A DNA stretch of 64,000 bases from an uncultured Planctomycetia bacterium (GTDB lineage Bacteria > Omnitrophota > Gorgyraeia > JABMRG01). Below are positions 25,401 through 41,883 of the stretch, in pieces; the stretch's first letter is position 1, and every line of letters starts with the position of its first letter. Both the position numbers and the translations under genes were made by a program. The stretch is from positions 1,786-65,785 of the forward strand of contig CAZBNF010000001.1 in NCBI GenBank assembly GCA_964493115.1, given 5' to 3'. The notes under the pieces were generated by a model that saw nothing but the letters and a program-made list of their open reading frames with translations, made no database searches and had not been told where the DNA came from.

Positions 25401-28400
25401 GATTTTTGTTTCATAGATTTTCAATATATTCTGCTGAAACTCCCTGATATATTTAAGGATCTCGTATGTAGCAGGCCATCCCTTCTTACTTACCAAGTCT
25501 TCTGAAAATCTTATTCCGTCTTTTCCTAAACTTGCAAGCAAGCTGCCTTCTGGCTTTCCGCCTACAGAAACAATGTGTGCTTTGTATAAGGCATTCTTAA
25601 AATCCAAGTCCAGGCCGCCGGGATAGAAAGAATCCCCCATAATAAGCAATGCCTCGCCAGGGGTTTTTTGCTGGTATTTTTCATCAACTACATCCCTGAT
25701 GAAATGCTCTGCCGCAACAGCTTTGTTTGCGCCTGTTGTTAATATATGTATCGTGCGCCCGCCTGCTACGCGGGGAACAAGCGGCCAGCCGTTAGCTTTA
25801 AATAAATCTATCAATTCCCCAAAGGCCTTTTTCCTATCCTTAAGGCCGGATACTGTAAGAAGTCCCTGCCTGTAATGCAATTTGGCTTTAGAGTCTATTT
25901 TTTCTCTTATAGCTTTGGCTATTGTTTTTTCGCATTCTTTATTTGTAGCAAGAGGTGTATTTTCAGAGGCATCATAAACAGGCGTATCTATTAAATTGCC
26001 ATTTTCGTCAAACCTATTGCATCTTGCGCCTGCTGCGGTATAAATAGTAAGATTATTCAGTAGCTTTTTATCTTTTGCTGCTGCCTTATCTATAATATAT
26101 CTTTTAACTTCATCTAGTCCCTGCGTGGTAATTAACGCGATTTGAACCCCTTGCCCTAATAAAGAGAGCAGTTCATTTAGCATCTTCATATCAATTTCTT
26201 TTGTAACATCGGTAAGGGTGTTGTCTATATCAAATATCATTGCACGATAAGGTTGAGGCGGGGTAGCCTTAGGCAATATTACCTTGGGCTTTTCTATCTC
26301 TTCTTTTTCTTTTCTAAGCCGGGAAAGCTCTTGCTCTAAAGACTCTTTTTGCCCTGCCAGCTTTTCAACATCTAAAGCAAGAGTTTGCCTTTGAGACTTA
26401 AGCTGAGTTATTTCGGAGTTTAGTTTTTCGTGTATTTTCTCTGATTGAGATATCTCACTTCTAATACCGTCTAATCGTGCGCTTAAGATTTCTTTTTCTT
26501 TGGTCAGCATGGCTAATGCCGACTGCTGTGCTTGCGTTACAGACTTTAAGGACTGCAGTTGTTGCGTAATACCACGTAAGTCCTGCTCAAGCTGGGATGT
26601 TTTTTCTAAAAGCGAGTCCTTTTGTTTGGTAAGCCGGCTCACTTCCTCTTCAAGCGTGTCTTTTTGTTTCTGCGCTGACTGGAGTTCCTCATTTTTCTGA
26701 GTAATCTGAGCGAGCAGATCCTGTATTTTGGAGTTTAAATTATCTATCTGCGAGACCTTATCGCTTGCCTTGTCTTTTTCAGCAGTTTCTTTTTCACCTT
26801 TTTCACCAATAATTTCAGCTGCTTGGGCACGTAAATTAGTCAATTTTTCTGTAAGCGCAGACAGCTCGTTTTGCTCTGAAGATAATTTATCTTCAACAGC
26901 TTTTTTACGCTTAGCAAGCTCTGCGATGTCTGATTCATACTGGGTTTTTTCAGCGCTTAGCCTGCTAAGACCCGAGTTTATACTGTCAAGTCTATTCTTG
27001 GCTTCTTTAATATGCTGGTCGGATTTTTCTTCTTCAGCCTTAAGCGTTGCTATCCTATCTTCAAGTGCCTTCTCTTGCTGCTGCTTCTTTTTAATCTCAG
27101 AAACAAGGATTGAAAGAGTATCGCGGGCCTGCGGTATCTGTTTTTGGATATTGTTTAATTCTTCCTGAAGGGAAGTTCTGTTATCTGATAGGGTGGATAT
27201 TTCTTTTTCAATAGATGCTCTTGCTATATTAAGATTTTGAACATCTTGCTCAAGAGCGGACTTTGTATTTTCAAGGCTCTGTATCTGCTGTTGCGGGCCT
27301 GCAGCTTCTGGTGCGCTTGCTTGGAGTTTTTCTTTTTCCTTTTTATCTATTGCTGATTGTATGTTTATAAGGCGCTGTTCTAAGTCGGCTATTTCTTTTG
27401 TTAGGTTGTTTTTTTCCTGTCTTAATCGGGCTATTTCATTTGATAGAGCCGTATTCTCTGATTGCAGTTCTTTTTCTCTTGTGGCAAGAGCCTGTATTTT
27501 TTCTTTAAGACTATCCTGGTCTTTTAATAGTTGATCTATGTCTTCTTGAGGAGCTTTAGGCTTTTCCTGTACAATGGCTGCGACTGCCTCTTGTCTCTTA
27601 GAGGCCCTGGCCATTAATCGTGCCTCTCCCATTTTAAATAAATAAGGCTTAACAGGGAGATTAAGTTCGTCTAAGAGGGCTTTCTTTTTCTTTAATGTCT
27701 CTTCGCTTACAGTAAGAAGTCCTATGTATTTCCCTTCCCCAACATCTATTCCTAACTCATTTTTTATAAAATCTGCTCTTTTGGCTAAGTCTACTTTTGT
27801 GTATCTTGCAAGCCGCTGAACATATTTTGCCTGCATATTTGCCCCTAGAGACTCGAGTAGAGCTTTTTGTTTTTCAGGTGTTGTTTGTGCAGGCGGGGCC
27901 CTTGGCTCAGTTTTTTCTAAAACATCTGGGGCAACCGGTTTTTCGCTTATATCCCCTTTTAAACCTTCCACTTGCTTATATAAAGCATCTACTGCCTTAC
28001 CCATTTGGGCAAGGGCATCTCTTGCTGCTTCAAGCTCTTTTAATTGTTCTCTTGCGGATTTTAACCATTCTGTTAAATCTTCATTTTCAGCAGGCGGCTC
28101 TGTAATCTTATGTTGTTTTGTCATACCATCCAGAAATACACCTAGTTGCTTTTCAACATCATCGGTTTTTTTCTCAAGTTCTGTAATTCTTTTTGCATTA
28201 TGTTCGAGATCCTCGGCAGGGTCTGCATCTATTTTTTTAACTTCTCTAACAGGTGGTATTGCAGCGGCGGCCACTGGCTTTTCTGTTGGTTCTGCGGGTT
28301 TTGCAGGTACTGCTTGCGCTACTGGTACTGCAGGTGCTAATGGTTTTGCAACCGCAGGAGCCTCTTGAGGTTGTTGATGTGCTTCAGTATCCGGTTTTTG

Positions 28401-30212
28401 TTGTTCTCTAAAAAGCCTTTCAAGTTCTACGGCTTTATCTTTATTTTCTGCGGCACTTCTTTTGGCGTCTTCTTTATCCTGTTTTGCTTTAGCTAAGAGC
28501 CTTTTTGCCTCTTTAAGCTCATCTTCTTTCTGCTTTAAAGACGCTTCAAGTGCTTTTGACTCTGCTATTTTCGATTTAAGGGCTTTATTTCGTGCTAATA
28601 AAGCTATAATTGAAACTATAGGAATACCTATAAGTAATAAGAGTGATAAAATGGCTAGCGTTTTTTGAAGGGCAGAGCTGTCTTGCCAGAATCTGATTAA
28701 TGTGTGGGGGGCTTCTGTCTCTTGTTTAAGTTTTTGTTCATATACTTTTTGCTGAGCAGAGAGCTCTTTTTCAAGGCTGGCTACCTTTTCTTCCTGCTCT
28801 GTTATTTTATCCTGCTGTTGGCTGACTTTATCTTCATAGGCCTTTGCTTGCCTCTGAGAATCTTCCAGGCTTTGGGCAAGAGTTTCTGCCTTTTGCCTTT
28901 GCCCACCAAGCTTATCTTCTAAATCCCGGGCCATTACTTCTGCCTGATCTGCCTGGCTTTGTAGTAAGTCCTTAACTTCTGTTATTTTTTCTACAAATTC
29001 GTCCTGAGCGCCTGTAACCTTATCTTGCAATTCAGAAAATCTTTCTAAAACCTCTGCTTTTTCTTCCTGTAAAGACTCTACATCACTTTCTAAAACCTGA
29101 GTTCTGTCTTGAAGCTCAGCAATCCTTTGTCTATCCTGTAATCTTTCGCGAGCTTCTCTTAATTGCCCTAATGGTTGGCGTCTTAAGCCCTGTTCTTCTA
29201 AATCTTGGGCCAAGCGCCCCATATCAGGCGACCAATACAAGTAATTGTTTACCTGCTCAAGGCTGCCTTTACCTTTTCTTAAGGAATTTAAAGCCATTCT
29301 TAACCGTAATAGATCAGCACGAGAAAGTGAGTCGTCTTTTTCAGCGCCACGTAAGGCCTCTACTGTCTGTCGGCCAATTCTTACGCCCTCCCAGAAGGTA
29401 TGGCTGTCCCTGTCCGCAAGCTGGCATATCAGTGAGGCTATTTCAGAATACCTTACTGCTTCAATTCTTTGTATATCAACCTGCTCTTGTTGCGTTAATG
29501 GTATTATAACTTCCGCGGGTTGAGTTTGCGCATTAGACATGCTGGCCAGGCCCATTGTGAAAATAAATGCTGAGATAAGCAGTATGTTTCGAAGTATTTT
29601 AGTGGGGTTTAAATTTTTAAAGAATGTGGGTTTTGCAGATGAGATACCTGATGAAGATGACTTAACATCCTGCTGCTTGATTTTAGGAAGCGGCATACTC
29701 TCTCTGCCTGTTCCCGCAGCTATATCTATTTTACTTTTAAGATAATCTATGTCTAATGCCCTGATAAGTTCAATTGTTTCAGGGTCTATACTGCCTAAAT
29801 CAACGCCCTTATATCCTAATGCCCCCTCTATTTCTAAACTAATAGGATTTGACTTTACAGATTGTGCTCTTAAAGCAGAGTCTTTATTGAATGAAAAGTC
29901 CCAATTACATGCCCACGAGATATCGTGGAGTAAAAAGGCAAGGATTATAACTATAGAAATGATTTTAAAGATAAAACGGCTGGTCTTATTACGTTGCCAC
30001 ACCATGAATAAACCTCTATTTGAGACGTTTATATAATCTTTGAAAAAAGACTTATAAAGATAATAGCATAATTCTAGTTTTCTGTCAATAAAAATTTGTA
30101 CTTTTTTGAAGTTTTTTTTGTAAGTGTTTGGGTGATCTTTTATATACCCCAATTGCTGCTTAGCAACATGGTTTATTATATCGCCAAACATTTGCATTGT
30201 AAAGCGGTTCAT
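4452..30212 (-). CDS. Giant multidomain membrane protein (8586 aa), midasin-like. From N to C it carries N-terminal TM and signal-like segments, a long coiled coil, a HAD-like domain, HEAT/PBS-lyase repeat arrays, internal multi-TM blocks, six AAA+ (AAA_5/MoxR/dynein-midasin type) ATPase domains, an HExxH motif region, and a C-terminal vWA/MIDAS domain.
   Basis: A single uninterrupted ORF of 25,761 nt. It contains six Walker A motifs (GETGVGKT or GPTGSAKT/GPTGGGKT types), a DxSxS MIDAS motif (VLDESGSMGSS) with a downstream VITDGQGNG, a HAD DxD motif (MIFDIDNTLTD), and a long array of AAEALGxxGDxxAIxPLIxAL-type HEAT repeats. Its start codon overlaps the stop of the upstream small ORF (ATGA). 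Confidence 0.85.
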   Translation of the reverse strand: MNRFTMQMFGDIINHVAKQQLGYIKDHPNTYKKNFKKVQIFIDRKLELCYYLYKSFFKDYINVSNRGLFMVWQRNKTSRFIFKIISIVIILAFLLHDISWACNWDFSFNKDSALRAQSVKSNPISLEIEGALGYKGVDLGSIDPETIELIRALDIDYLKSKIDIAAGTGRESMPLPKIKQQDVKSSSSGISSAKPTFFKNLNPTKILRNILLISAFIFTMGLASMSNAQTQPAEVIIPLTQQEQVDIQRIEAVRYSEIASLICQLADRDSHTFWEGVRIGRQTVEALRGAEKDDSLSRADLLRLRMALNSLRKGKGSLEQVNNYLYWSPDMGRLAQDLEEQGLRRQPLGQLREARERLQDRQRIAELQDRTQVLESDVESLQEEKAEVLERFSELQDKVTGAQDEFVEKITEVKDLLQSQADQAEVMARDLEDKLGGQRQKAETLAQSLEDSQRQAKAYEDKVSQQQDKITEQEEKVASLEKELSAQQKVYEQKLKQETEAPHTLIRFWQDSSALQKTLAILSLLLLIGIPIVSIIALLARNKALKSKIAESKALEASLKQKEDELKEAKRLLAKAKQDKEDAKRSAAENKDKAVELERLFREQQKPDTEAHQQPQEAPAVAKPLAPAVPVAQAVPAKPAEPTEKPVAAAAIPPVREVKKIDADPAEDLEHNAKRITELEKKTDDVEKQLGVFLDGMTKQHKITEPPAENEDLTEWLKSAREQLKELEAARDALAQMGKAVDALYKQVEGLKGDISEKPVAPDVLEKTEPRAPPAQTTPEKQKALLESLGANMQAKYVQRLARYTKVDLAKRADFIKNELGIDVGEGKYIGLLTVSEETLKKKKALLDELNLPVKPYLFKMGEARLMARASKRQEAVAAIVQEKPKAPQEDIDQLLKDQDSLKEKIQALATREKELQSENTALSNEIARLRQEKNNLTKEIADLEQRLINIQSAIDKKEKEKLQASAPEAAGPQQQIQSLENTKSALEQDVQNLNIARASIEKEISTLSDNRTSLQEELNNIQKQIPQARDTLSILVSEIKKKQQQEKALEDRIATLKAEEEKSDQHIKEAKNRLDSINSGLSRLSAEKTQYESDIAELAKRKKAVEDKLSSEQNELSALTEKLTNLRAQAAEIIGEKGEKETAEKDKASDKVSQIDNLNSKIQDLLAQITQKNEELQSAQKQKDTLEEEVSRLTKQKDSLLEKTSQLEQDLRGITQQLQSLKSVTQAQQSALAMLTKEKEILSARLDGIRSEISQSEKIHEKLNSEITQLKSQRQTLALDVEKLAGQKESLEQELSRLRKEKEEIEKPKVILPKATPPQPYRAMIFDIDNTLTDVTKEIDMKMLNELLSLLGQGVQIALITTQGLDEVKRYIIDKAAAKDKKLLNNLTIYTAAGARCNRFDENGNLIDTPVYDASENTPLATNKECEKTIAKAIREKIDSKAKLHYRQGLLTVSGLKDRKKAFGELIDLFKANGWPLVPRVAGGRTIHILTTGANKAVAAEHFIRDVVDEKYQQKTPGEALLIMGDSFYPGGLDLDFKNALYKAHIVSVGGKPEGSLLASLGKDGIRFSEDLVSKKGWPATYEILKYIREFQQNILKIYETKIMTEEEAKEQARRRTPEYMISQLFDNIPQHDQNIWAVLNNLYPFKDSKAEIKAMLIDLAKKDASLSRIIESLYSSISQGGRIKKEDMLSVQDYDQFKRQAGLKESFDATPSSIENGLGFTYNGRQYKLVLAPRDILDLIGGYISADCTDPGFANGSPFLKYVLGHIRSPGFLKFRLYKQLTQGQWEWAGNVYTAAARNKDNQAVLLIDALQLPSKDAGPFHTMPKPREKNPPFNNLQESTGVGEQIIGTLTKYAQDTGFKQVWLGFVSNFYAPNGGLVGYFQKKYAREYTATLPPLSRENKASEIVPTDSETAYQSRLAGLGLAPIGVDKEILDSFPRKDPWTWRGFARIWPIEKIKPPVPEVKAETEPVVEEAPTKPIVKPESTAPVEEKPKLISAKNVRVIIEKALKDLGLEDPAVRFYNTEEMQKVLEIWESLEEIDSAVLRELMQLYVDGVGGDVIENILKLENIRLSAIRYLEEIYAHPYYYIKDNDVQGKPINRKVSYSDDFLNSIAHLLCVLGSPIGISRTLNSLMRLIFASLIEHQYQQDPAGWRRVRENSTKTLKSLLQHIVDTIGDPAIMGIREVFDKYATRESSEYLKSAGKDKLLEGYGPSEACILLAGALMQLGDKEGFLFLKDALYSKSEEVQEWAKYAFYSVHNPNALRLLPDILTLDRIYHKSNAVRMSYVQPIKDGIPEDKDFIDRVLKAIDSYQKGKKDRGSIKYLQNAARLGKEPQASKAQQVLSVIEKKAEVEVKSPALQVKPPVSEVKAETAPVVEKAPPAVTPPISKAKIEKAPEVPRDERTETKIKFSQKEIEEFVNSLVSENEQKRLAARNSLIAIGLPIVRLLIEKERSIPWHDYDRFESEVLDIFVALGKPALEYLLNSWREGKNVNPLIVGHALAKAKDLRAIDPLINVIETQVDTKKTQAEDSLAALGNAGGLELMRCLENPLWIVKKHIARSLRKINDPAGLKASELILYILDKNKTKVLERSNDIIKLLILAFFEESDKEIINFIIECIEDMDENIVKEALNKKIEETKNDTTLAVASKNERLKRLVKISRELIIKQPLLDILNDKESNWDLLRLSALELAKFKIRNPKVEIISLLCEFKDRTDMFDKKFPESRALTQPPVEFIDRIKEIQIDPELISILLKSLTSLDPDDSIKVNAIRALGFVGAEEAIAPLTNSISGGKTGLEAILALGKIGAGLATPTQTEKRSYIVQTLIDKYPLSIIGNERLKIELMRAITIALAEAGGRDAIRFLVTKASWERWISLVGEVDVYILTQPFEDTRAIIKDVLNSSYEIDRISKTARRPESEIIKELKNLLERVNQEEQNINQAISKSKLPKSGMLDRAKRWFKGPKMFLMGLVIVSSWLGFTPQIHAQQPVPEEHIMRTTQPSEEETKIELPTVRQRPQAIPQQTVETPEKTEQQRLEEEKARIERQKRAEAARIEQERKRQEERIKREQEQAERKRVEAERRRLAGMVFKWIGLSILGLGSIVGAGYLIKASVENSKAVGKGIGKAIKHTVLLPYYFGKYLIYYPISGFIKGVEKTEEFIKGQIEEKRVGKEITAASVFFMVYCFYLLYSIGMHEELLKKSSPSVNELAKLLNNISITTMWVTFGFLGFLSLFATVRYIIKKKLSRPVSGVALFLVIAFSGISGFIGYKTAVYFSSKESANRITAIKGLTEHKQRGSRDQKIIISLIEALSDRETSIREAAAEALGICGDSQAIKPLIEALNDSSYEVRRAAVASLNRLGVIENTTDTELLKKILGLNSELQSKVTDAFVRIGRPALSSLADMLRDINNSQYQDTAKAALVRIGKDHPQQVMQAASKVLSNDNPSVRRRAVEIVSELNNPQAVDFLMRASSDSDWEIREHAVKALARVKTDSQEASILRSIDNYDENALVNMGKPAVSFLISALDGPSRHHTYRRDGLNRADFAAKILGIIGDKAAVEPIINAMQNRRINWKIAIDALTQLNDSRAVEPLLLMAKGRYDKDFDIQVVVEAIIHISGADPTPILLKALQDNDDEVCRTAAMVLARSNSPDIIKPFIERLDDRESDIVNISIQTLGRLRAEKAVRPIIRILKNSTISGEHLIYPLKAEHNRPYYGSRNLEIKRSIVEEALVQIGRPAAMPLLRISDHEKTGEEAQNILAKIGPEAVSPLVERLNHWNPSARKQSVELLTRIGVPAIPSLIQAFGSDAYTVREGALNALLDINNPDASINLLIPALQNQNEDVRWRAAIALAQMTDKQAVGPLIGITNDKSVRVRKAAVQALGSNGGFDTAQSIGPLMERLQDDDLFVRKAAIVSLERASLNYQFRNLVAHRIAASLRDSDWRVRAVAANILGNFSYSQEIINSLTPYLDDPNPYVRRQTVFSLGRLSPPNIQIFLNKALNDPDEYVRLTTAKAIEEIIALDNVYIDRFLQRILHHGENIRKTAIAELKEKSNSQIVYRLVRVLASQESPETERAHALNAIKMLDTQGVRALIVGLESKDVLTRQLSAEALVSIGKPACDELVANLRNENPLTRQALLNVLVRIGAPSKRALTNSIWDKSDLELSGLAKAVLWKIDYLEAQKTHQNLHFNYVTWPEIKKWARVLAPSYLIILVGIGGLFGFIKYIREQKTKRKASSILRHVGLNQKPMIIAEAFIRSGLNIELRINSNYKDLITSKEKGMLEKVLSELAASGNLQAIQKITKIKIVTGNDRLMHLDKNTHEIIIDKDAFKSYYLLFMEIEHELQHILVESLNRRAPPVIEELTVLRHEIMRFLSFVPSQQEEVLSVLKADNDLDDRKFHEILTYAQNYGIEKIPDLLIKYIRQFYPKDLQHGLSAAIMVVLRDKVISLWQDLHSKRIASYLGTKYDIEPKIANLMVRFHRKMVADIHKRNIGENKLEPYEFTLRELYKWAKFYQRFHTQWGAATSFIKGAVYVYADRMENQKDKDRFYYNINALSLDLEVLELADYKEGRKIDLLALLSKEQAINNIVKNDRDITIGDLKIKINVSTDSEYIPSRQSAELVLIPRTIEDLEKVALAVDLNDPVLLIGETGVGKTSLVRDLAFLTKNAFRRFNLNGQTDKLEFIGGFKPSHTYLTREDAIDIINQAVAASTRQEQRILAESVGLITGGKISFPKAKKLIQDALSARRWELVANVAEAIAHKKGLDKQKGVKFEWYNGILIESMQKGHWLVLDEINLAEPEVIERIRYLLEPKGYLKINEHKGEQWLQAKDYDKLVNEYAGSHTGTRENLIKQAITQLSARGIFRIHPNFRIFATMNPPEYEGRKQLSPALMNKFRVKWIRNFTQDEICEILRKKYHLNDDIINRLSNFYAELAGISGKEGELGKEIGQPYYFTIRQFFRLALRIQQWLSRLSNIPSPEIINKQLALEAQEVYGDSLKSEADQRLFKGLLRKEQVFGCEPPQVDTEIKIDEPKNKVYFGDVALPINKKGGLFIPTSKAELAPIPATKKNLRNLARSIEMKENLLLVGPTGSAKTASLTNIAYLTKNNFIRLNLDSQTDIGDLIGKNIPKEGTSEFLWQDGDLIRAMKEGYWLLLDEFNLAEPEILERINSLLDDDGSLVVTEHKGEVWIPGYVYDEKKANGENMANLRRIHENFRLFAAMNPEHYAGRNRLSLAMKNKFIEKWFSGDFSPEELKEIIRFYLAKEGLFKGPPIQGKSLDTIIEVMASVHMSILNKIRENRFNRLALSGNAEDYNFSLRDLKDWAEFIRNLVMQIGEGVIAKSVEDNRQQLNEKREILTMISDPVKKQEYIEKLKEVKLNPLEGLLQREKNADNKQKLASRIIKIKEEITKISDPQKIEEYKKELQSGIEKTMQSIAFFEQIKTDPHNIWYWGINRAIFDGAIYIYCDRLYGSAARTKEHISGDKDIFYKEILGPIFTQAVQSGIGGLEAISVEEERELLGEGVSFNELISQGKSEGMDIASQKLAAKFVDLTLGFPKELREKYLIHIFSNLTNPDKQIHGIYGFALLPKGIALELIDAALEHPNSKIKQAAMETLSQVFDPRDKNFVNEFTPFAAKLAVFLSDDNQDLRLTSALVLEKLEWVEWEQKAIPRLSQNPGKRPDKLPWDKTLQRLIRLKDSSGDYLGIFGFLKKKSTIISLLLISSAVMIFATPFILQASSFSLSTALIAFLGYLFGSRIWRFNKENAATYLVTGTIVAGLLTLPVILALYTTSSILVFSAYLSIFSGVFGISFGLLDLLGQSYYLIYLPQLQILSARYKKLALDLEDFYSLLEKTKEGKFIHFPFESEEKLNYFNTWYGKLTLLSGFILGIIFNISLFHTAKIDSLPVIPIIGWVPQWTQIAFGAITGGAFGYFISSFTILAATTFREIVYKPIKAIYGDEIKKREWIGFREILSSYGPLIIETFKKYRNALLESNNIVASIKKEATSKDDMLKTLRPDAIKRLDNGALIYKIFVPAPLQDSGNTQVFIPESENSELIPVIDTVKALKQISLSVLLDDPVLLIGETGVGKTSLVRYLANLTRHSFRRFNLSGQTDKTEFIGGYKPDLSGVFKWKDGILLEAMLYGHWLVLDELNLAESQVLERLNSLLDDDRTLVLAEHLGEHFKSIGVYEEKKRQGAEEFFDEFRKVNYLVDSDGRRIYCVHPDFRLFATMNPAEYAGRKILSPALMNRFRVKWIDELTTTEKKLVLLEKYYAKETGALKDDIEKHFISGDGSLDRLGIVHERISTAAKLREIGKDAVDPYHYSIRDLLKLGKRVARIIDLEENNTSMPLDGYQRDDILMRELWEVYSDRIRDEDEQDFLANELIRIAFEKQSVLGQSPQIVQSDSIFGDIVVPKNQRGGPYIPGREAILTHTQSTLHYLRRIAKAVMMNEKVLLVGPTGSAKTSFIRYIAHLTQNNFARMNLDAQTDTSELIGQYVPVEGKKNEFFWQDGMLVRALKEGWWVLFDEINLAEAEILERINSLLDDDSCLVITEHENEKLISSVEYEKKLDVFIKEYITSGVSKEEARQRAIEKLTKEKIFRIHPDFRLFSAMNPEHYAGRNRLSIAMRNKFTEIWISGDMSFEELTEITKGYLSEYSKGTIKGHALDSAAKAMVLFHTELQDIFKKLSVFTAEYEFSIRELRALSRYISMMSPKVGMNKAFNKGLAYIYIDRLHAKEFRYKNEKGEDSKTNDRKLFIEIIEDVLKGKQMAVPLLDLDYLKLYAIGRVPVEINFDSKSIDIEGAQVLVNKNNTLDYVPSEEVARLILTPQTKLNLSNIALSIILKEPLLLVGETGVGKTSFIRYLANKSRNNFRRFNLSGQTEKLEFIGGFKPDENGVFVWRNGILIEAMREGHWLVLDEINLAPSQIIERLNSLLDDDGFLVVTEHENEKWIQAERYDDQKKILLKSNTDAIKKDSNGAEYLVVKDTKLYRIHPDFRLLATMNPADAEYAGRKRFSPALMNRFRVKWIDELRRDPDTMDIIKELYGRELPAQLLDKFLDVHFQIKEKGRKLADGKIYYTIRHLMRWLNRIKDTTVKDENTLRRAAVLEGKEVYGDGLSEEMHQEELRKYLYDTLAEKFGSDFYDTDYQISSKGNKIYFGDIYLETNGRRDIYVPAHPLDLTPSTSKYLKKLAKAVLRNEPMLLVGPTGGGKTAFVRHLSDLVNINFISLDLDGQTDVAELIGQFIPEEKTNRYKWYPGALLQALETGSWILIDELNLAEPEVLERINSLLDDDGILVVTEHENEVYLPAKLYDTKFNKLKEEILKSGNITRDPATADSIAHAQLRKQGFYRIHPTFRLFAAMNPESYAGRMRLSLAMLNKFSLLWVSGEQPEEEQISIVKHYLAAPERETKETEIPNEFFKTISQPRTLFVKEARLEELSRQQSKQIESIIDKNEDIVNDIVLIAASEEHAGKYSVEFKQGYGEDLYAEFADIEKEINARRQKIDTERAIAISVGNAVSDIESIMQSLDNIAATKTSSAGSREGLERERKLFEEKIVIVERHDPQRTQELKDRFEQKFKEAESRIQATEAETAHKAQAEKERQEKEARLEESARAPQQELETKTVETKSTESKLDDIQEQLDLILKKNVKQQGTLGQIAKDPEDDLETMQKKLESLKSTSDALAQLSKKIDGMYKEIANLQEQLGKNPENLTSQKSSSAGLHITEAQQELSWFSRLNRWQKLQRVNSAMRKIELTAKFFGGDFNVKVQPHPGNEWGITYDTDPPTIVFPEKDLMKKNWRCNVATAMHEGSHRDITWVDPEFHESESNRFLFNAVEDPRVNNWIMAKYKGASSYFRDLYKETFPIDQKEPFHDSTVLPHIQYGLGLIHHWFYGKEHPAIKNKRVLDVLQRTREDAIRAYETLPGTISVTKERGNRITISSPVFKPMSIDLPHIGQRQYLGQPDISAIQRIDENKIVLTTARGHKEIISLSEGETHHIVINLSPSAEEKISAAQNAAWIIKHNILPAYNELVEDSKSIAKQNNSRTSGKGASSQQQQEKANQEVEQKSKEAADALGRKFPIDEELEKTVSEDKTAGSSRVKKDAGRADTKNQVIKGSADKTDEKKTASDALTKEESRERKDSKSKISEGVGQPQGLMDRSIPASKSEKSLSALEQIELREKLDQDSKRKLTRYDEYYLPMTRLIEQLFGVLDNELHKDIKPKYKGDYSTGPKLNLRKAMQMEQTADMDIWLRRVKPTKRSFKFALVLDESGSMGSSDKVINAMHSLVLLQEVLSRLDIDFSVIGFSERAWIHKEFGKKFRYENKDSLISEVLSYMARGQGTNDAEAVELAIKELESQDGDSKIAIVITDGQGNGRESVTKYLAEAHRKHIEVIGIGIGYAMEYVKDVYKPFILVNEIDDLPKVLAKVLIDIIVHQKPASEVGVNSLSKTAEMQVKSSSAGSYNEEHLALEKREQAIEVLTQKGKEIVPVLLNTIEKTNSISQMEGLAEVLGKIEDIRALPVLQRLQQKHRSSLILEKAVMRLLSSANAQRSITSDTLMTPQETTVTTPAVDIRSNRIDPANLRNLKNRNSAIQKAA
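4950..5480 (-). other. C-terminal von Willebrand A (vWA) domain with a MIDAS motif, part of the giant protein.
   Basis: The minus strand encodes RSFKFALVLDESGSMGSSDKVIN at ~5405-5460 (DxSxS) and KIAIVITDGQGNG at ~5120-5160. Confidence 0.75.
6650..6950 (-). other. HExxH motif region of the giant protein (zinc-metallopeptidase-like, possibly DUF2201_N-like). It is followed by a K/E/S-rich low-complexity linker leading to the vWA domain.
   Basis: CNVATAMHEGSHRDITWVDPEF is encoded at ~6790-6840, with HEGSH at 6804..6818. The Ser/Lys/Glu-rich linker is encoded at ~5600-6300. Confidence 0.4.
8000..16600 (-). other. Six AAA+ ATPase domains of the giant protein arranged as three tandem two-domain modules. 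A multi-TM block (~12400-13250) lies between module 1 and module 2.
   Basis: Walker A motifs are encoded at ~16262-16285 (LLIGETGVGKTS), ~14941-14989 (LLLVGPTGSAKTA), ~11967-11990 (LLIGETGVGKTS), ~10843-10890 (LLVGPTGSAKTS), ~9661-9710 (LLLVGETGVGKTS) and ~8583-8640 (LLVGPTGGGKTA). Each is followed by NFxRxNLxGQTD and Walker B (WLVLDEINLA or LLLDEFNLA) motifs typical of MoxR/midasin AAA_5 domains. Confidence 0.8.
17750..20330 (-). other. PBS-lyase/HEAT-like repeat array of the giant protein (~860 aa). It is flanked by TM segments at ~17560-17650 and ~20400-20960.
   Basis: Tandem ~31-aa repeats of the form xxVRxxAAxALGxIGxxxAVxPLIxxLxDxD, e.g. REAAAEALGICGDSQAIKPLIEALNDSSYEVRRAAVASL, encoded ~20130-20270. 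Confidence 0.7.
25600..26245 (-). other. HAD-superfamily hydrolase-like domain embedded in the giant protein.
   Basis: Motif I MIFDIDNTLTD is encoded ~26218-26240, and a downstream LLIMGDSFYPGG (motif IV-like GD) at ~25625-25670. Confidence 0.55.
26250..29320 (-). other. Long coiled-coil (SMC/apolipoprotein-like heptad) region of the giant protein, interrupted by a Pro/Ala-rich spacer and a TM helix.
   Basis: Roughly 1000 aa of E/K/Q/L-rich heptad sequence, e.g. LEQELSRLRKEKEEIEK and LQEEKAEVLERFSELQDKV. A P/A-rich spacer (KPLAPAVPVAQAVPAKPAEPTEKP) is encoded ~28260-28340, and a TM helix (AILSLLLLIGIPIVSIIALLA) at ~28600-28680. Confidence 0.6.
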
Positions 30213-30451
30213 AAAAACTTTTTGCTACAATTGTATAAAGATATTTTGATAGAGATCGCCTCTGGTGATTGGGGGTTCTTTACCGACTTACTTCTCGTAA
30301 AATCAACAATCCATGCCTTCGGCAGCCATGCTTTCCGGTTGTCAAATTCTATCAAGATAGCTTTGCGGGTTTCATGCACAAGCAGAACATCTACCCATAT
30401 ATAGTCATAGTAAGCGTATGGAGCTTTAAGCAACCGCCATATATTAAACAT
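30209..30451 (-). CDS. Small hypothetical protein (~80 aa), translationally coupled to the giant gene.
   Basis: The ORF ends in a TGA overlapping the giant gene ATG (ATGA at 30212..30209). The likely start is ATG at 30451, with AGAGG 5 nt upstream; the ORF track uses GTG at 30457. Its function is unknown. Confidence 0.5.
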   Translation of the reverse strand: MFNIWRLLKAPYAYYDYIWVDVLLVHETRKAILIEFDNRKAWLPKAWIVDFTRSKSVKNPQSPEAISIKISLYNCSKKFL

Positions 30452-30893
30452 GGCCACCTCTCTTTCTTCTTAGGCGCTCTGCGCCGAGTTGCATCCATGG
30501 TGGCATTTCGTATCTTTGCTGAGGTTGGCATACCCGCTTGCGCTCACTCGCACGGACAAGCAGCTTGCGGTATTTAATCTGTAAAGTATTAACTGGTAAA
30601 TCCTGTAATTCTACCCACACCTTTGGCTTTTTGTTCTTATATCCGCGAACCATCTCTTTCTGCGTTGTTACAAGGCCCATATTGATAAGCTCCTGCCTTG
30701 CCTTATAAATGGTGGCATTTGCAAGGCTTGTTGCCTCTCTCAGCGCCTTAGCGCTGTAACAGCTCTTCCCTTCTACCCCGCCTGCTAAGACATAAAGAAT
30801 ATATAGCTTTGATGCTGAAGAGGACATGTCTCTTAAAAAACCTAATTCTTTTAAGTCTCTGTCTATCCAGCCAAATGGGTATAATTTTCTCAT
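30444..30893 (-). CDS. Winged helix-turn-helix DNA-binding protein (149 aa), a putative regulator of the giant-gene operon.
   Basis: SKLYILYVLAGGVEGKSCYSAKALREATSLANATIYKARQELINMGLVT resembles a wHTH DNA-binding region, and the C-terminus is basic. Its stop overlaps the downstream small ORF by 8 nt. Confidence 0.5.
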   Translation of the reverse strand: MRKLYPFGWIDRDLKELGFLRDMSSSASKLYILYVLAGGVEGKSCYSAKALREATSLANATIYKARQELINMGLVTTQKEMVRGYKNKKPKVWVELQDLPVNTLQIKYRKLLVRASERKRVCQPQQRYEMPPWMQLGAERLRRKRGGHV

Positions 30894-31161: not shown

Positions 31162-31214
31162 GCGCAATCCGTAACTCGTTACAACTCTTTAAGTTACAAG
31201 AGTGTCTGAATCGA

Positions 31215-31292
31215 TGGTGACCCCAGCGGGACTCGAACCCGCGTAAACGGCTCGAAAAGCCGTTGTCCTAGACCGCTAGACGATGGGGCCAC
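31215..31292 (-). tRNA. tRNA-Glu (anticodon TTC), with CCA encoded.
   Basis: The reverse complement GTGGCCCCATCGTCTAGCGGTCTAGGACAACGGCTTTTCGAGCCGTTTACGCGGGTTCGAGTCCCGCTGGGGTCACCA folds as a cloverleaf. The anticodon loop is TTTTCGA (anticodon TTC), similar to bacterial tRNA-Glu. Confidence 0.8.
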
Positions 31293-31315
31293 TAATAAAT
31301 CGTGCCTTGTATTAA

Positions 31316-34300
31316 CTAACCTACTGTCTCTGCGACAACAGAGGCCACTGCCGATACCTTATCTTTTGTGCCTTTAAGCGTAATAACGCATACCCCCTGC
31401 GTAGAGCGGCCGCTTTCCCTGATACCTTTTACGGATGTGCGAACAATTGAACCGCTTTCCGTGATAAGCATTATCTCATCATTTTCGGATACTACGCGCA
31501 GGGCTACAGCAAAACCGGTTTTGTCTGTTGTCTTTATGTTGATTATACCCTTCCCGCCTCGTGATTGTATTCTATATTCGCCAATAGGGGTTCTTTTGCC
31601 AAATCCTTTCTCGGATATTGTCAGCAAAGTCGAGTCAGCACGCGCTATCACCATACCTATCACAAGGTCTTTTTTGCCTAAAGATATCCCCCGTACGCCC
31701 CGGGCGGCACGGCCCATGTTCCTGATGGCACTGGACTTAAATCGAATTGCCTTGCCCTCTTTTGTGGCCAAGATAATGTCATCCTTGTCATCTGTGCATG
31801 CCGCCTCGATAAGCTTGTCCCCTTTTTCGATAGTAATGCCTATGATGCCGCCTTTACGCGTATTGGCATAGGCGGCAAGCTCGGTTTTTTTGACAACACC
31901 TTGTTCTGTTGCCATAAAAATATAACCGCCTTTTTCAAAATCCTTGACCCTTACAAAAGCACTTATGGCTTCTCCAGTAGACAGTTGGAGAAGATTAACA
32001 ATCGCCTTGCCTTTTGATGCTCTTCCAGCCTGCGGGATTTCGTGCACCTTGACCATATACGCCTTGCCTGTGTTGCTAAAAAATAGTATGTGCTCGTGCG
32101 TTGTCGCGATAAATAAATGCTCGGCAAAGTCCTCTTCTTTAAGCTCGGCCCCCACCATGCCTTTGCCGCCTCTTTTTTGGCGGCGGTAAGCACTTACAGG
32201 CAATCTTTTAATATACCCTCCGTGGCTTATAGTAATCACCACATCTTCTTCCGCTATAAAATCTTCTATCCGCAGGTCCTCTACTTCACCTACAATATCC
32301 GTGCGCCTGTCATCACCGTATTTTTTTTGCATCTCAAGCAACTCTTCTTTTATGATGCCCAGGACGCGAACCTCGCTTGCCAGGATTGCCTCATATCCTT
32401 GTATTTTTTTGATCAATTCTAAATATTCCGCGTCTATCTTGGTGCGCTCAAGCGCTGTCAGCCGCTGAAGCTGCATCTCGAGAATAGCCTGAGCCTGACG
32501 CGTGCTCAGGTCAAAGTTTTTTTCAAGCGCATTTTTTGCCGACTGCGTATCCTTTGCGGACTTTATAGTCTTAATAATTTTATCGATATACTTAAGCGCT
32601 ATTTTTAAACCTTCCAAAATATGGGCGCGTTCCTGGGCCTTGCGTAACAGAAAATCTGTACGCCGCCTTACAATCTCTTTACGATGGTCAACATGCAGAT
32701 CAAGCATCTGGCGCAGGTTCAAGACCCGGGGCTGGTTGTTAACCAGCGCAAGCATAATAATACCAAATGTCGAGGCAAGTTGTGTGTGTTTGTAGAGTTG
32801 GTTTAAAATAACCTGCGCGGGCCTATCACGCCTAAGCTCCACAACAATCCGGATCCCGTCTTTGTCGGATTCATCTCGTATATCGGAAATGCCGTCTATT
32901 TTTTTATCCGTCACAAGCCTTGCGATAGACTCGATAAGGTTTGTCTTGTTTACCTGATACGGCAGCTCTGTTATGATAATGGCGCTCTTGCCGGCTTTTT
33001 GTTCCTCCACGCTGGCGCGCGCATGCAGTTTTATAATGCCGCGCCCTGTGGTATAAGCGCTCTTTATACCGCTTTTACCACAGATAGTCGCCCCTGTCGG
33101 GAAATCAGGGCCCCTTACAATCTTCATAAGGCCGCTCATATCTGTCTGCGGCTCATCTATCACTTTAATAATCGCGTTGATCGTCTCGCGTAAATTATGA
33201 GGCGGAATATTAGTTGCCATACCTACCGCGATACCGCTGCAGCCATTTACAAGAAGGGTAGGAAGCGCTGATGGCAGCAGCACCGGCTCTTTAAGCGAGC
33301 CATCAAAGTTTGGCGTGAAATCCACGGTCTCTTTATCAATATCCGCAAGAAGCTCATCCGCTATAGAGGCCATGCGCGCCTCCGTGTATCTCATAGCCGC
33401 CGCGGGGTCACCGTCGACCGATCCCCAGTTGCCCTGCCCGTCAACAAGCGGATACCGCAGAGAAAAATTCTGCACCATGCGCACCAGGGCATCATACACT
33501 GACGAATCGCCGTGCGGGTGATATTTTCCGAGGCAATTGTGAGAAAGTATGCCGTTTGCAATAAATTCGTGGTCCCCTTCGACTTGTATATCGTAGGTTT
33601 TTTCTGCAGGCGCTCGTTCGGTTGATGCCACGTTCATGAAATATATATCATCCCTGATAACATCTCTTAAAAAAGTGTAGAGCGGCGAGTTAACCTTGTG
33701 CAGCTTATCCAGTATGCCCCATTCGATAATCTGGGATTTCCTGAGCGCTTTTTCTTTAAGATCTGCCGCATATCTTATCTTGCAGCCCCCTGGATATTTT
33801 ATGCCCGCCCTGAACTTGTTGCCTTCTCCGCCTTGATACCATCCTGCCCCTATGTGTTTTTCGCTTAATTCGCTAAAAACCATCGCGCCGCTATATGGTA
33901 TAATGTCGCAATTTGATTTTTTTAAATTTCTGTTATTTAGTTCCGCGATCCTTTCTTGTTTCTTTTTATCAACCAGGTTTAGTTTGCCCGCTAAGAGTTT
34001 CGCGTTTATGCCTTTTAACTCCAGGGAATAAAATGCTTGCCTGGTATTGACGCGCCTGCCATTTATAACATCCCCCCCCCTTTTGTCTTTGTTTTTGTAT
34101 TTCGCGCCGAACATACCGTAGTGTTGCAGCAAGACAAGAAGCTTATCAATTAAACATTCTGAAGTTGAGCCGTAGTGTATAACGCATCTCTCTTTATGAA
34201 TACTGCCGTCTCCATCGACCAGCCCCGAAACAAAGGAAAAAACAACAGATTCAGGTGAATTAAATATTTGCTGTGGTATTGTTTTTGTGGCCGCCTTTGC

Positions 34301-35149
34301 CCCTTCTATCCCAAAATTTTCCCTTAAAAAATCCACCACATTTTTTCTGCAGGTTCTTGTCGTGTATTGACGGTGTGCGCTGATTACGTACTTGCCATGC
34401 GATACATAGATTTTTTCTTTGATACACGGCACATAGTTGAAATTGGCCATCAATATGTCTGCTATCTTTTCTATTGTTTCGCGCGAATTACAAGAAAAGC
34501 CTATTCTATAAGTGTCTTTTCTGCTCTTTTCCTTTGTTATCCATCCTTCGGCTATAAAAAATCCTAAAAGATAAGCCATATCTTCGTTTAGTTGCGCTGG
34601 GCACTGCCCGCCACAGCATTGACTCAATGCCGTTTTATGTTTGATATCCGGGTATGCGGCCCTTAAAACTACGTAGTCGTTGCTTGTTAGGTTTTTTGCT
34701 TCCTTCCACTCAAGCCCAAATTCTTTGTTTAGCACCTTAAATTTCTGTGAAGGGGTTGCTGTGGCTGTGTTTCCGTTGGCAAGGATAATTTTTACCAGTT
34801 CCTTGGGCGGCATTTCATACAACTCTGATACCGCGCAAATGCCCTTCTGCGTGTAAACACACTCTCCTCGTTTTACATCCTGAATAGGCACAAGCCCTCT
34901 GCTTGTCAAAACAAGTGTGTCTTTTACGAAACAATCCCCTACTATACGAGCGCTTTTTTTGTATGGCTTGGAGTACTGTAAGCTGAGCCCGTGCATAGTG
35001 TAAAGTATTCTGCGCTGAACAGGCTTTAGGCCGTCGCGCGCATCCGGCAGGGCGCGCCCGACAATTACACTCATAGCGTAATTAATATACGAGTCTTTTA
35101 TCTCGTCTTCAACATAGCGCTTCGCTATCTTTTCACCTTGTGTGTACAT
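31316..35149 (-). CDS. gyrA: DNA gyrase subunit A, interrupted by a 466-aa intein with a LAGLIDADG homing-endonuclease domain.
   Basis: The N-terminus has ...[30 protein letters not shown]. The extein reads KSARIVGD|C...SHN|[20 protein letters not shown]. Removing residues 73-538 leaves an ~811-aa GyrA with a C-terminal beta-pinwheel. Confidence 0.9.
33536..34933 (-). mobile_element. GyrA intein (466 aa), inserted in the GD/KYHPHGD region next to the active site, with a LAGLIDADG homing-endonuclease core.
   Basis: It starts with Cys (CFVKDTLVL) and ends with HN followed by a +1 Cys. Two LAGLIDADG-like blocks are present ([11 protein letters not shown] and [11 protein letters not shown]). Coordinates were checked against codon frame. 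Confidence 0.8.
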
Positions 35150-35168
35150 TTATATTTCCTTTAGTCTG

Positions 35169-39330
<4,162 letters not shown>

Positions 39331-39333
39331 GTT

Positions 39334-40428
39334 TTATGTTATCTGCATGGGCAGGACAATATATACATATTCGTCACGTATCCTTAGCACCCCGGGCTTC
39401 TCCGGGCCCGTAAATTCTATTTCCACCGTTTCTTCTTCTATGCTTTTCAAGACATCTAAAAGATATGTTGGATTAAACCCTATCTGCAGTTCCGCGCCCG
39501 AATAAACCACCTCAAGCTCTTCTGTGGTCTCCCCTACCTCCGGTGTTGTTTTACTAATTATGAGTTTATTTTTTGTCAGGTGAAGCTTTATTGCCTGCGA
39601 TTCTACTGTTGTTAGCAGGCTTGCCCGTTTTATGGCTGGTATCAACTGTTCCTTGTTGATCGTTAGCGCGGTTTCTGTTTTGCATGGTATGGCCTGCTGG
39701 TAGTTGGGGAATTCACCCTCAATAAGCCTTGATATGATGGTGGTGTTGTCTATTTGGAAAACAATTTGATTGGTTGTAAATTTTATTAGCACACTGCCGT
39801 CTTCTTTTAGGGTTTTGAATAACTCTTGTACTGTTTTTGCTGGTATTATTATAGTTTGCCCCTCCCGCACCTCTGATTTATGTGGTTTCTTTATAATAGC
39901 CAGGCGCCTGCCGTCCGTTGCTATAATTTGCAGATGTTTCAGTTGGATCTCCATGCAAACCCCATTCAGCACATACCTGGTCTCTTCCTTGCTCATCGCG
40001 AACGCTGTATAGGTAAGCATTTGCTTTAGTGTGTTTTGTTGCATAGTAAGTGTTTGTGTGTTTTGATTGGTAGGTATATTGGGAAATTCTTCTTTTGGTA
40101 TGGTTAGTATTTTAAAAACGGTGTTTTTGGTTGTAATTAATAAGATGTTGTTTTTTTTGGTTGTTATTTGTATATCTTCATTCGGAAACTCTTTAATGAT
40201 ATCCAGAAACCTTTTTGCGGGTATTGTGGTAGAGCCTTGCTCAAATACACCCGCTTCTTGTGTATGTGTTATGCCTATATTTAAATCTGTCGCGGTTATT
40301 TTAATTGCGGTTGGTTCTGTTTCAAGTAATATGTTCGCCAATATAGGGAGTGTATTTTTTTGGGCCACCGCCCCCATTACTATTTGTAAAGATTCTAGCA
40401 GTGCTTGTTTTGGTATAGTTATCCTCAT
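39334..40428 (-). CDS. dnaN: DNA polymerase III beta sliding clamp.
   Basis: A 364-aa protein with a three-domain beta-clamp-like sequence (MRITIPKQALLESLQIVMGAV...) in the conserved dnaA-dnaN synteny. Confidence 0.9.
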   Translation of the reverse strand: MRITIPKQALLESLQIVMGAVAQKNTLPILANILLETEPTAIKITATDLNIGITHTQEAGVFEQGSTTIPAKRFLDIIKEFPNEDIQITTKKNNILLITTKNTVFKILTIPKEEFPNIPTNQNTQTLTMQQNTLKQMLTYTAFAMSKEETRYVLNGVCMEIQLKHLQIIATDGRRLAIIKKPHKSEVREGQTIIIPAKTVQELFKTLKEDGSVLIKFTTNQIVFQIDNTTIISRLIEGEFPNYQQAIPCKTETALTINKEQLIPAIKRASLLTTVESQAIKLHLTKNKLIISKTTPEVGETTEELEVVYSGAELQIGFNPTYLLDVLKSIEEETVEIEFTGPEKPGVLRIRDEYVYIVLPMQIT

Positions 40429-40509
40429 ATTAACACCCTCTATTTTATCTATTTATTTATTAAATATAATAGTATTAATAGTAATTGGTGTGGAAAGGTG
40501 TATAAACAC
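40429..40509. promoter_or_regulatory. Candidate oriC / DNA-unwinding element in the dnaA-dnaN intergenic spacer.
   Basis: A very AT-rich tract (tctattttatctatttatttattaaatataatagtattaatag) is followed by degenerate DnaA-box-like sequences (tgtggaaag) and a palindrome (aggtgtataaacacct). Confidence 0.35.
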
Positions 40510-41883
40510 CTAACCCCCACACCTAATTTGTTTTATAAGATTATCTACAATTTGTGTTAGTTGTGTGTTATTTACCATAGCCGACTCTATCTTGTTACAG
40601 GCATGCAATACGGTTGTGTGATCACGCCCCCCAAAAAAACCACCAATTTCTGTCAAGGGGGATTTGGTAAGTTCACGCGCTAAATACATAGCAATCTGCC
40701 GCGGGAAAGCCAACAACCTGGTTCTTTTTTTAATACGCATAGTGTTGGCGCCAACACTAAAATAATCCGCTACAATGCGCTGTATTTTATCAACAGTAAT
40801 ATCAAGCCCCCGCTTGGCCTCAACCTCTTGCAGCACATCTTTAACCGATCCCATACTCACAGGCTGGCCCATAAGAGATGAGTACGCGATTACGCGAATA
40901 AGCGCGCCCTCTAACTCCCTTATGTTTGTTTTAATATTTTCGGCGATATATAACAAAACCCCATCTTCAACCGAGGCGTTTGAAAACTCAAGTTTTTTTC
41001 TTAAGATCGCTACCCGGGTTTCTATATCTGGCGGCTGTATGTCTGTGACAAGCCCCCACTCAAACCGCGAAACCAGACGATTTTCCAGGGCAGGTATTTC
41101 TTTGGGGGGCCTGTCGCTAGAGACAATAATTTGCTTGTGGGCGTCGTATAGGGTGTTGAATGTGTGAAAGAATTCTTCCTGTGTCGATTCTTTACCGGAG
41201 AGAAACTGTATGTCATCAACCATTAAAACATCCAGTTGCCGGTAGTGGTCTTTGAATTTTTGCGTTGTACGGTTTTGTATGGCGCTGATTAGTTGGTTGG
41301 TGAATTTTTCGCTCGACATATACAACACCTTAAGCCTGGGGTGTTTTGTTAGGGTGTGCTGTCCAATCGCCTGCATTAAATGAGTTTTACCAAGCCCGAC
41401 ACCGCCGTAAATAAACAGCGGATTATAGGATTTAGCGGGTGATTCCGCAACAGCAGTGGCGGCAGCGTGTGAAAAACGATTACACCCGCCAATTACGAAA
41501 CTGTCAAAGGTGTATCTGGGGTTGAAATTACTTTCTTTCGCGGCCGGAGCGCGTTCAAATGGATTCTGGAAAAGACGAAAACCGCCACGCTTATCCTGTG
41601 CGTGCGTATCGTCCTGCGGGCCCGCTTCTACCCTGGCCGGTGTTTGGTAGTCTATTGTTAGCTGCTCTTTCTCGATACTTTTTAGGGCGAGGCTTATCTG
41701 GCCTGAATAATGTTCTATAAGCCAGTCTTTAAAAAAAGTGTTTGGCACCTCGACGGAAATTGAATCCATTCCTGAGGACAGCTGCCTGGTGGGGGCGAAC
41801 CACGTTTCATAACTTTGCGGGCTTACTTGTTTGCGTACGTGCTGCAAAACAGCGCCCCACGTACCATCAAGTGCTTGAGACAT
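40510..41883 (-). CDS. dnaA: Chromosomal replication initiator DnaA.
   Basis: A 457-aa protein with the Walker A motif GGVGLGKTHLMQAIG and a C-terminal DnaA DNA-binding helix (VLHACNKIESAM). Confidence 0.95.
   Translation of the reverse strand: MSQALDGTWGAVLQHVRKQVSPQSYETWFAPTRQLSSGMDSISVEVPNTFFKDWLIEHYSGQISLALKSIEKEQLTIDYQTPARVEAGPQDDTHAQDKRGGFRLFQNPFERAPAAKESNFNPRYTFDSFVIGGCNRFSHAAATAVAESPAKSYNPLFIYGGVGLGKTHLMQAIGQHTLTKHPRLKVLYMSSEKFTNQLISAIQNRTTQKFKDHYRQLDVLMVDDIQFLSGKESTQEEFFHTFNTLYDAHKQIIVSSDRPPKEIPALENRLVSRFEWGLVTDIQPPDIETRVAILRKKLEFSNASVEDGVLLYIAENIKTNIRELEGALIRVIAYSSLMGQPVSMGSVKDVLQEVEAKRGLDITVDKIQRIVADYFSVGANTMRIKKRTRLLAFPRQIAMYLARELTKSPLTEIGGFFGGRDHTTVLHACNKIESAMVNNTQLTQIVDNLIKQIRCGG

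Follow-up and report, generated by a model that had tools for sequence, protein, structure and literature searches.

The window analysed here was a 64,000-nucleotide stretch (positions 1,786 to 65,785, forward strand) of contig CAZBNF010000001.1 from assembly GCA_964493115.1, deposited as an uncultured Planctomycetia bacterium and placed by GTDB in Omnitrophota (Gorgyraeia; JABMRG01). Its gyrA gene, encoding DNA gyrase subunit A (GyrA), was interrupted in frame by a segment of 466 amino acids (aa) with the properties of an intein, and this segment is the subject of the present analysis. The features of the gyrA open reading frame (ORF) are given below in window coordinates, with intein residues numbered from Cys1, the vertical bar marking a junction, and family counts referring to a 75-member set composed of the window copy plus 74 resolved genome copies.

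31316..35149, minus strand: gyrA precursor ORF (N-extein, intein and C-extein), 1277 aa, no interruption
34934..35149, minus strand: N-extein, GyrA residues 1-72, ending in ...KKSARIVGD, collinear with E. coli GyrA numbering
33536..34933, minus strand: intein, 466 aa, Cys1 to Asn466 (Pfam, NCBIfam, AlphaFold, Foldseek)
34895..34933, minus strand: block A including the Cys1 nucleophile (C1, F2, T6 and G13 in 75/75)
34730..34774, minus strand: block B, non-canonical, with T60 (B:7) and Q63 (B:10), each in 75/75
33914..34606, minus strand: LAGLIDADG homing-endonuclease domain, approximately intein residues 110-340 (Pfam, PDB, Foldseek)
34541..34573, minus strand: LAGLIDADG motif 1, catalytic acid E129 (conservation counts)
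34199..34234, minus strand: LAGLIDADG motif 2, catalytic acid D242 (conservation counts)
33638..33898, minus strand: region between the endonuclease domain and block F, residues 346-432 (conservation counts, helix and strand content of the model)
33554..33598, minus strand: block F with D448 (F:4) and H455 (F:13) (T446, D448 and H455 in 75/75)
33533..33553, minus strand: block G and +1 residue, GILSHN|C (H465, N466 and Cys+1 invariant)
31316..33535, minus strand: C-extein, GyrA residues 73-811 and stop codon

The gyrA precursor and its intein

The precursor ORF matched DNA_topoisoIV (E=5.6e-160) and six DNA_gyraseA_C repeats in Pfam, and the window GyrA exceeded the cut-offs of the NCBIfam gyrA equivalogs NF004043 and TIGR01063. 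The intein occupied precursor residues 73-538 (CFVKDTLV...GILSHN, with ...SARIVGD as the N-side flank), and excision of its 466 aa left an 811-aa GyrA, in which the fused exteins read CGTATAGTAGGGGAT|TGCCTCGGAAAATATCACCC across the junction. The spliced extein aligned with E. coli GyrA without gaps (residues 8-249 of 3nuh opposite residues 8-249 of the query), and the insertion was therefore located between Asp72 and residue 73, the latter being Val in E. coli GyrA and Cys in window GyrA. This point lay in the N-terminal catalytic region, 50 residues before the active-site Tyr122 and 10 before Ser83, in the quinolone-resistance-determining region. The initial annotation, made from the letters alone, had proposed a 466-aa intein at 33536-34933 with a Cys start, a His-Asn end and a +1 Cys, the excision of which would restore a canonical GyrA of about 811 aa: (i) the ORF translation reproduced coordinates and length exactly; (ii) all three terminal features were correct; and (iii) comparison of the extein with GyrA orthologues returned a canonical, collinear protein of 811 aa. 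Its insertion site, given as GD|KYHPHGD, was right as to the place in GyrA but has to be amended, since Cys-Leu-Gly lies between the junction and KYHPHGD.

Domain, fold and splicing motifs of the segment were those of an intein. The models Intein_splicing (PF14890; E=2.7e-17, 63.5 bits against a cut-off of 35.8), LAGLIDADG_3 (PF14528; E=3e-21, two stretches) and intein_Cterm (TIGR01443, NCBIfam) all exceeded their curated cut-offs. The AlphaFold model of the intein, built with 25 homologues in the alignment, had a predicted local distance difference test (pLDDT) of 90.1 and a predicted template modelling score (pTM) of 0.90, and Foldseek matched it over its whole length to TliVMA (7qss, E=2.7e-25), PI-PfuI, PhoVMA, PI-PkoII, and PI-SceI. 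The class-1 features present were the position-1 nucleophile, the Asp/His pair of block F, the His-Asn of block G followed by Cys+1, and the Hint fold; Hint blocks A, F, and G were thus all found, while block B had Thr60 at B:7 but lacked His at B:10, reading TPSQ instead of TxxH. Ten positions were invariant in 75/75 members: Cys1, Phe2, Thr6, Thr60, Gln63, Asp448, His455, His465, Asn466, and Cys+1. The region at residues 346-432 contained many invariant basic or aromatic residues (H360, W365, K373, R375, K385, R387, and Y388) and may constitute an accessory DNA-binding domain. The gyrA segment is very probably a class-1 intein of full length in which a single-chain LAGLIDADG homing endonuclease with two motifs is nested. 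Selfish elements of this kind are ordinary, and what sets this one apart is a single non-canonical catalytic motif.

The solved archaeal endonuclease-inteins TliVMA/PhoVMA (7qss, 7qst), PI-PfuI (1dq3), and PI-PkoII (2cw7) and the yeast PI-SceI were the top matches both in fold (E=2.7e-25 to 1e-12) and, within the PDB, in sequence. In them, as in the window intein, a LAGLIDADG endonuclease with two motifs divides the Hint splicing domain, and an additional region precedes block F, but they differed from it in sequence (12-19% identity), in host proteins, and in having His at B:10 where the window family had Gln.

The mycobacterial GyrA inteins (Mxe/Mle) resembled the window intein in being class-1 inteins with Cys1 and His-Asn inserted into the N-terminal catalytic region of GyrA, but their site was after the active-site Tyr (AMRY|C/T) instead of Asp72|Cys73, and no meaningful sequence similarity was detected (1am2 matched with E=0.12 in the C-terminal block only). 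Mxe GyrA is a mini-intein with canonical TxxH. Membership in NCBIfam NF038098 (GyrA_w_intein) was considered and rejected, the score being 935 bits against a cut-off of 1850 and the window site lying 50 residues upstream of Tyr122. The name 'GyrA-a' denotes the Mycobacterium xenopi site (PMC5050341). The two kinds of intein coexisted in P0006, P0023, L042, and L045, where one gyrA held both a window-family intein and an AMRY-site intein. Besides Asp72|Cys73, the gyrA genes of related genomes displayed two further insertion sites, GQGNFG|C (after Gly110) and AMRY|C (after Tyr122); inteins at such extra sites were found in L026, L027, L033, L054, L065, and L075 and also in L042, L045, P0006, P0023, P0046, and P0092, with up to two inteins in one gyrA and three insertion sites within about 50 residues.

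Block B and the splicing pathway

Block B read G-N-T-A-T-A-T60-P-S-Q63-K-F-K-V-L, that is, T-x-x-Q and not T-x-x-H. In profile alignments based on hidden Markov models (HMMs), Gln63 stood opposite the block-B His of TliVMA (TPIH), PI-PfuI (SPWH), and gp41-1 (SEEH), and residues 1-98 of the window intein contained no His anywhere. Gln was found at B:10 in 75/75 family members and in 27/29 more distant inteins at the same site; the remaining two (P0192 and P0200, 31-32% identical) kept TxxH, as TLNH and TPDH, and may reflect either the ancestral motif or an independent invasion of this GyrA site. Close to Gln63, Lys64 was present in 60/75 and Lys/Arg66 in 73/75 members, and the -1 extein residue of the family was Glu (68) or Asp (6).

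The nearest relatives outside GyrA were inteins of DNA cytosine-5 methyltransferases (P0036 and P0039-P0041; 24-28% identity, E=5e-10 to 8e-5), inserted between Pro and Cys of the catalytic motif (FAGFP|...VHN|CQGFS). Over the first ten residues they hardly differed from the GyrA family, and they also carried a LAGLIDADG domain, but they resided in another host gene and had canonical TxxH (TPNH, TEEH, and TLNH). Because these nearest non-GyrA inteins have TxxH, Gln63 is taken to be a derived state within the gyrA-intein lineage.

The His at B:10 has been called the most conserved intein residue, and only two inteins without it were listed, namely the Arth_1007 pseudogene, which has Asn, and Tko CDC21-1 (PMC3196547, PMC4031507, PMC7765530). 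The latter makes up for the missing His via Lys58 and does splice (PMC4031507). Tko CDC21-1, the only active exception in the reviews (PMC4031507, PMC3196547), and the window family are alike in being natural inteins without the block-B His; Tko CDC21-1 differs in that its host is CDC21/MCM, it is not a sequence relative, and its Lys58 lies outside the conserved blocks, and the GyrA family is far more widely distributed than this type. In the Ssp DnaB intein, -1 side chains larger than aminobutyrate can replace the His in the N-S acyl shift (PMC6333167). The searched literature, with the supplementary tables of PMC4760082 outside its scope, yielded neither an account of the Asp72|Cys73 site, or a published name for it, nor any mention of Gln at B:10.

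On these data the following pathway is proposed. The 1277-aa precursor would fold its Hint domain, Cys1 would perform the N-S acyl shift at the Asp72-Cys1 bond, Cys+1 would take over the N-extein by trans-thioesterification, Asn466 would cyclise with the help of His465, and an S-N shift would leave the 811-aa GyrA with an Asp72-Cys73 peptide bond. Since the block-B His is replaced by Gln63, the first step would need another activation: Gln63 might hydrogen-bond the scissile amide, and Lys64/Lys66 together with the bulky acidic Glu/Asp at -1 might provide strain or oxyanion stabilisation. With metal ions held by Glu129 and Asp242, the freed intein would cleave intein-less gyrA alleles across the junction of codons 72 and 73, and recombinational repair would copy the intein into the cut allele (homing).

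It is a tentative but reasonable proposal that the invariant Gln, perhaps with Lys64/Lys66 and the acidic -1 residue, represents a catalytic solution undescribed in the searched papers, and that gyrase maturation could become tunable through a first step that is slower or depends on conditions; if true, this would concern small-genome, uncultured lineages. The Gln-bearing gyrA-intein family offers a natural and testable system for activation of the N-S acyl shift without His, and it might also supply protein engineers with inteins that tolerate other exteins or splice with other kinetics.

The intein family, its endonuclease and its mobility

A sequence search with the intein returned 35 GyrA-borne homologues, 31-63% identical and all at the same site, with the junction pattern VVG[ED]|CF...HN|C[LM]GKYHPHGD; in total, more than 100 homologues were collected, every one at this GyrA site. 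A scan of GTDB genomes (one genome per species, intein-only alignment) detected relatives in at least 178 species genomes, and among the best 80 of these 178 the hosts were (i) bacteria of Omnitrophota, Elusimicrobiota, Stahlbacteria/WOR-3, several Patescibacteria, Desantisbacteria, Bipolaricaulota, and Chloroflexota and (ii) archaea of Woese-, Nano-, and Micrarchaeota, Thermoplasmata, Methanosarcinales, and Methanomassiliicoccales, with a maximum identity to the window intein of 56%. When 1.84 billion representatives were searched exhaustively without a profile, 44 clusters were obtained at E<=1e-30. Across the 94 columns conserved in at least 90% of the family, the window copy was off consensus at one, the family median being three. 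GyrA inteins are already catalogued: one survey comprises 50 of them (PMC4760082), and another study discarded 23 from archaea (PMC9348778); with GyrA and GyrB inteins catalogued and their domains flagged by annotation pipelines, a gyrase intein as such is ordinary.

The two LAGLIDADG-like blocks quoted in the initial annotation were both found (34541..34573 and 34199..34234), and both motifs ended in acid-Gly (...IAE129-G and ...DGD242-G). In motif 1, position 129 was D in 66/75 and E in 9/75 members, followed by G130 in 75/75; in motif 2, D242 was present in 74/75 and G241 and G243 in 75/75. The endonuclease domain had PDB sequence matches to PI-PkoII and to the endonuclease region of TliVMA, its nuclease core matched I-DmoI in Foldseek, and the matches to PI-PfuI and PI-PkoII extended across the whole domain. 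In ten moderately diverged family pairs, the ratio of nonsynonymous to synonymous substitution rates (dN/dS) was 0.09-0.24 for the endonuclease domain and 0.07-0.25 for the splicing domain; the nuclease was therefore kept by selection in the family, and with the closest relative only 56% identical the values speak for the family and not for the window copy. The initial annotation had found these blocks consistent with an active or recently active endonuclease, and this was supported by the intact E129 and D242, the 1/94 deviation, the empty sites in the closest relatives (see below) and the purifying selection at family level.

The sequence comparison was extended to the host genes and loci. 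The window extein was 66-91% identical to GyrA of Candidatus Omnitrophota and 99% identical to P0042 (ENA sample ERZ27248939), from which it differed by nine nucleotides, none of them within the intein. The next GyrA relatives (P0043-P0045 and P0047-P0054; 83-91% identical) were 811-844 aa in length, mostly exactly 811, and had the empty site RIVGD|CLG[KR]YHPHG; in P0046 (90%) and P0092 (76%), the 72/73 site was likewise empty and an intein followed AMRY, the classical mycobacterial site. In one of the closest relatives with an empty site, the intein-free L082, the locus dnaA-dnaN-dciA-gyrB(850 aa)-gyrA(811 aa) was syntenic and both gyrase genes lacked an intein, and the blastn alignments of this locus with the window ended at the intein boundaries or at most 16 bases from them (36345, 34932, and 33520). 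The same comparison showed no distinct identity peak or trough around the junction as a sign of a co-conversion tract.

Residue 73 in 114 intein-free Omnitrophota GyrA proteins (P0043-P0161) was Cys in 70, Val in 24, Ile in 12, and Thr in 8, and all closest intein-free relatives had Cys73, which may represent either a pre-adapted homing site or the scar of an earlier occupancy. The insertion 10 residues upstream of Ser83 and the common Cys73 bear on the co-evolution of homing sites and +1 residues with the host. Inteins and hosts were discordant in three locus pairs (L009/L048, L031/L064, and L065/L067), with exteins 88-91% and inteins 48-52% identical, and the mean intein identity between Bacteria and Archaea (47%) was close to that inside each domain (50-51%); discordant host pairs and flat cross-domain identity both point to repeated invasion or replacement. 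Mobility of the gyrA intein family was thus supported by the sequence comparisons.

Several observations weigh against the picture of an active and mobile intein. The NCBIfam N-terminal model intein_Nterm (TIGR01445) gave 17 bits, under its cut-off of 24.5, because block B is TPSQ instead of TxxH. Inteins examined experimentally are described as requiring His at B:10, and of the two listed exceptions one is a dead pseudogene (PMC3196547, PMC4031507). Activity in splicing and cleavage is predicted from conservation and from the essentiality of gyrase, and the dN/dS values have the family-level reach stated above. Viral contigs of IMG/VR contained no family member, only distant LAGLIDADG inteins at most 28% identical. 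GC content (guanine plus cytosine) as a sign of foreign origin was rejected, since the intein (42.1%) was close to the window mean (41.2%) and the extein was at 48%, with the gyrB intein behaving likewise; the contrast came from the gyrase exteins being GC-richer, not from the intein.

The competing explanations were weighed on the same evidence. A lineage-specific GyrA insertion without Hint blocks, which the initial annotation had set up as the opposing case, draws on the subthreshold N-terminal model score and on nothing else; the Hint and LAGLIDADG domains above cut-offs, the fold shared with solved inteins, the invariant junction residues and the nearest GyrA orthologues lacking exactly that segment excluded it, leaving a non-intein origin with a practically negligible probability. 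The same subthreshold score, together with the essentiality of His B:10 in tested inteins and the pseudogene status of the Asn-bearing Arth_1007 (PMC3196547), would fit an intein made splicing-defective by its Gln in a gyrA allele that functions poorly or not at all. Such a defect is highly improbable for a residue found in 75/75 and 27/29 inteins from at least 178 species and in an essential gene of the single-copy type located at the origin, where the ORF is intact, the extein is normally conserved and dN/dS of the splicing domain is 0.07-0.25; splicing without this His also occurs naturally, in Tko CDC21-1 (PMC4031507).

The two further alternatives accept splicing and concern what became of the element. 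The endonuclease of the window copy might no longer home, because of vertical inheritance, a late stage of the homing cycle or a co-opted role, as could be suggested by the lack of any relative above 56% identity except the 99.7% identical strain, by an intein GC equal to the genome mean, suggesting long residence, and by degenerate family members such as P0031 (369 aa, DSGGE in motif 2); nevertheless, with both catalytic acids intact, one deviation in 94 conserved columns, family endonuclease dN/dS as low as that of the splicing domain and empty sites in 85-91% identical relatives, loss of homing is considered unlikely. Retention of the intein as a post-translational gyrase switch, not a purely selfish element, operated by redox chemistry at Cys1/Cys+1 or by slow His-less activation, appears somewhat less probable still. 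The precursor, interrupted in the catalytic N-terminal region, should be inactive, Cys occupies both junction positions, the first step could be slowed by the non-canonical block B, and three intein sites fall within about 50 GyrA residues among related genomes; however, clustering at conserved sites is also expected from conservation of endonuclease targets, and sporadic presence in close relatives with a maintained endonuclease is what a selfish element predicts. A splicing-competent, selfish class-1 intein is accordingly the preferred reading.

The gyrB intein and neighbouring genes

The remaining features of the locus were as follows.

36345..37640, minus strand: gyrB intein, 432 aa, in gyrB ORF 35169..39032, site DSAGG|CFSGETKV...VFVHN|SARQGRD
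39334..41883, minus strand: dnaN (364 aa) and dnaA (457 aa), upstream of gyrB
30444..30893, minus strand: 149-aa ORF between gyrA and the giant gene, without a Pfam match
4452..30212, minus strand: giant 8586-aa ORF directly downstream of gyrA

The gene order was dnaA-dnaN-...-gyrB-gyrA, syntenic with L082, and with dnaN and dnaA upstream of gyrB the window therefore spanned an origin-type chromosomal gene cluster. The gyrB extein had 855 aa. The gyrB intein exceeded the cut-offs of both the N- and C-terminal intein models and had no LAGLIDADG; its insert contained an HNH-like string (Pfam HNH_3 at E=0.07 only) and repeated QWQDE-type motifs, and some of its relatives carried PF13392. With canonical terminal models, an HNH-like insert and no LAGLIDADG, the GyrB intein family was unrelated to the gyrA intein. 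Its homologues, annotated as 'intein-containing DNA gyrase subunit B', came from cyanobacteria, the candidate phyla radiation (CPR), Nanoarchaeota, and Omnitrophica, and its site is that of the Synechocystis GyrB intein. The initial annotation had regarded inteins in both gyrase subunits as uncommon outside mycobacteria, cyanobacteria and some archaea, and this did not hold: both were present in 15 of the 41 related loci with a visible gyrB.

The giant ORF comprised (i) a C-terminal half with at least six dynein/midasin-type AAA_5 modules plus Midasin AAA lid domains and (ii) an N-terminal half with long HEAT-repeat arrays, coiled-coil-like stretches and predicted transmembrane-looking segments. 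Locus L081 (ENA ERZ27248939 k141_626476) was 99.7% identical to the window over 36141..31172 and diverged 144 bp past the gyrA stop codon; beyond this breakpoint, helix-turn-helix (HTH)/HipA-like toxin-antitoxin genes, a C1 peptidase, a 531-aa protein and a phosphoenolpyruvate (PEP)-utilising enzyme replaced the 149-aa ORF and the giant gene. All nine gyrA differences between L081 and the window were clustered in nucleotides 3407-3588, adjoining the breakpoint, and the L081 contig began inside gyrB, just downstream of the gyrB intein.

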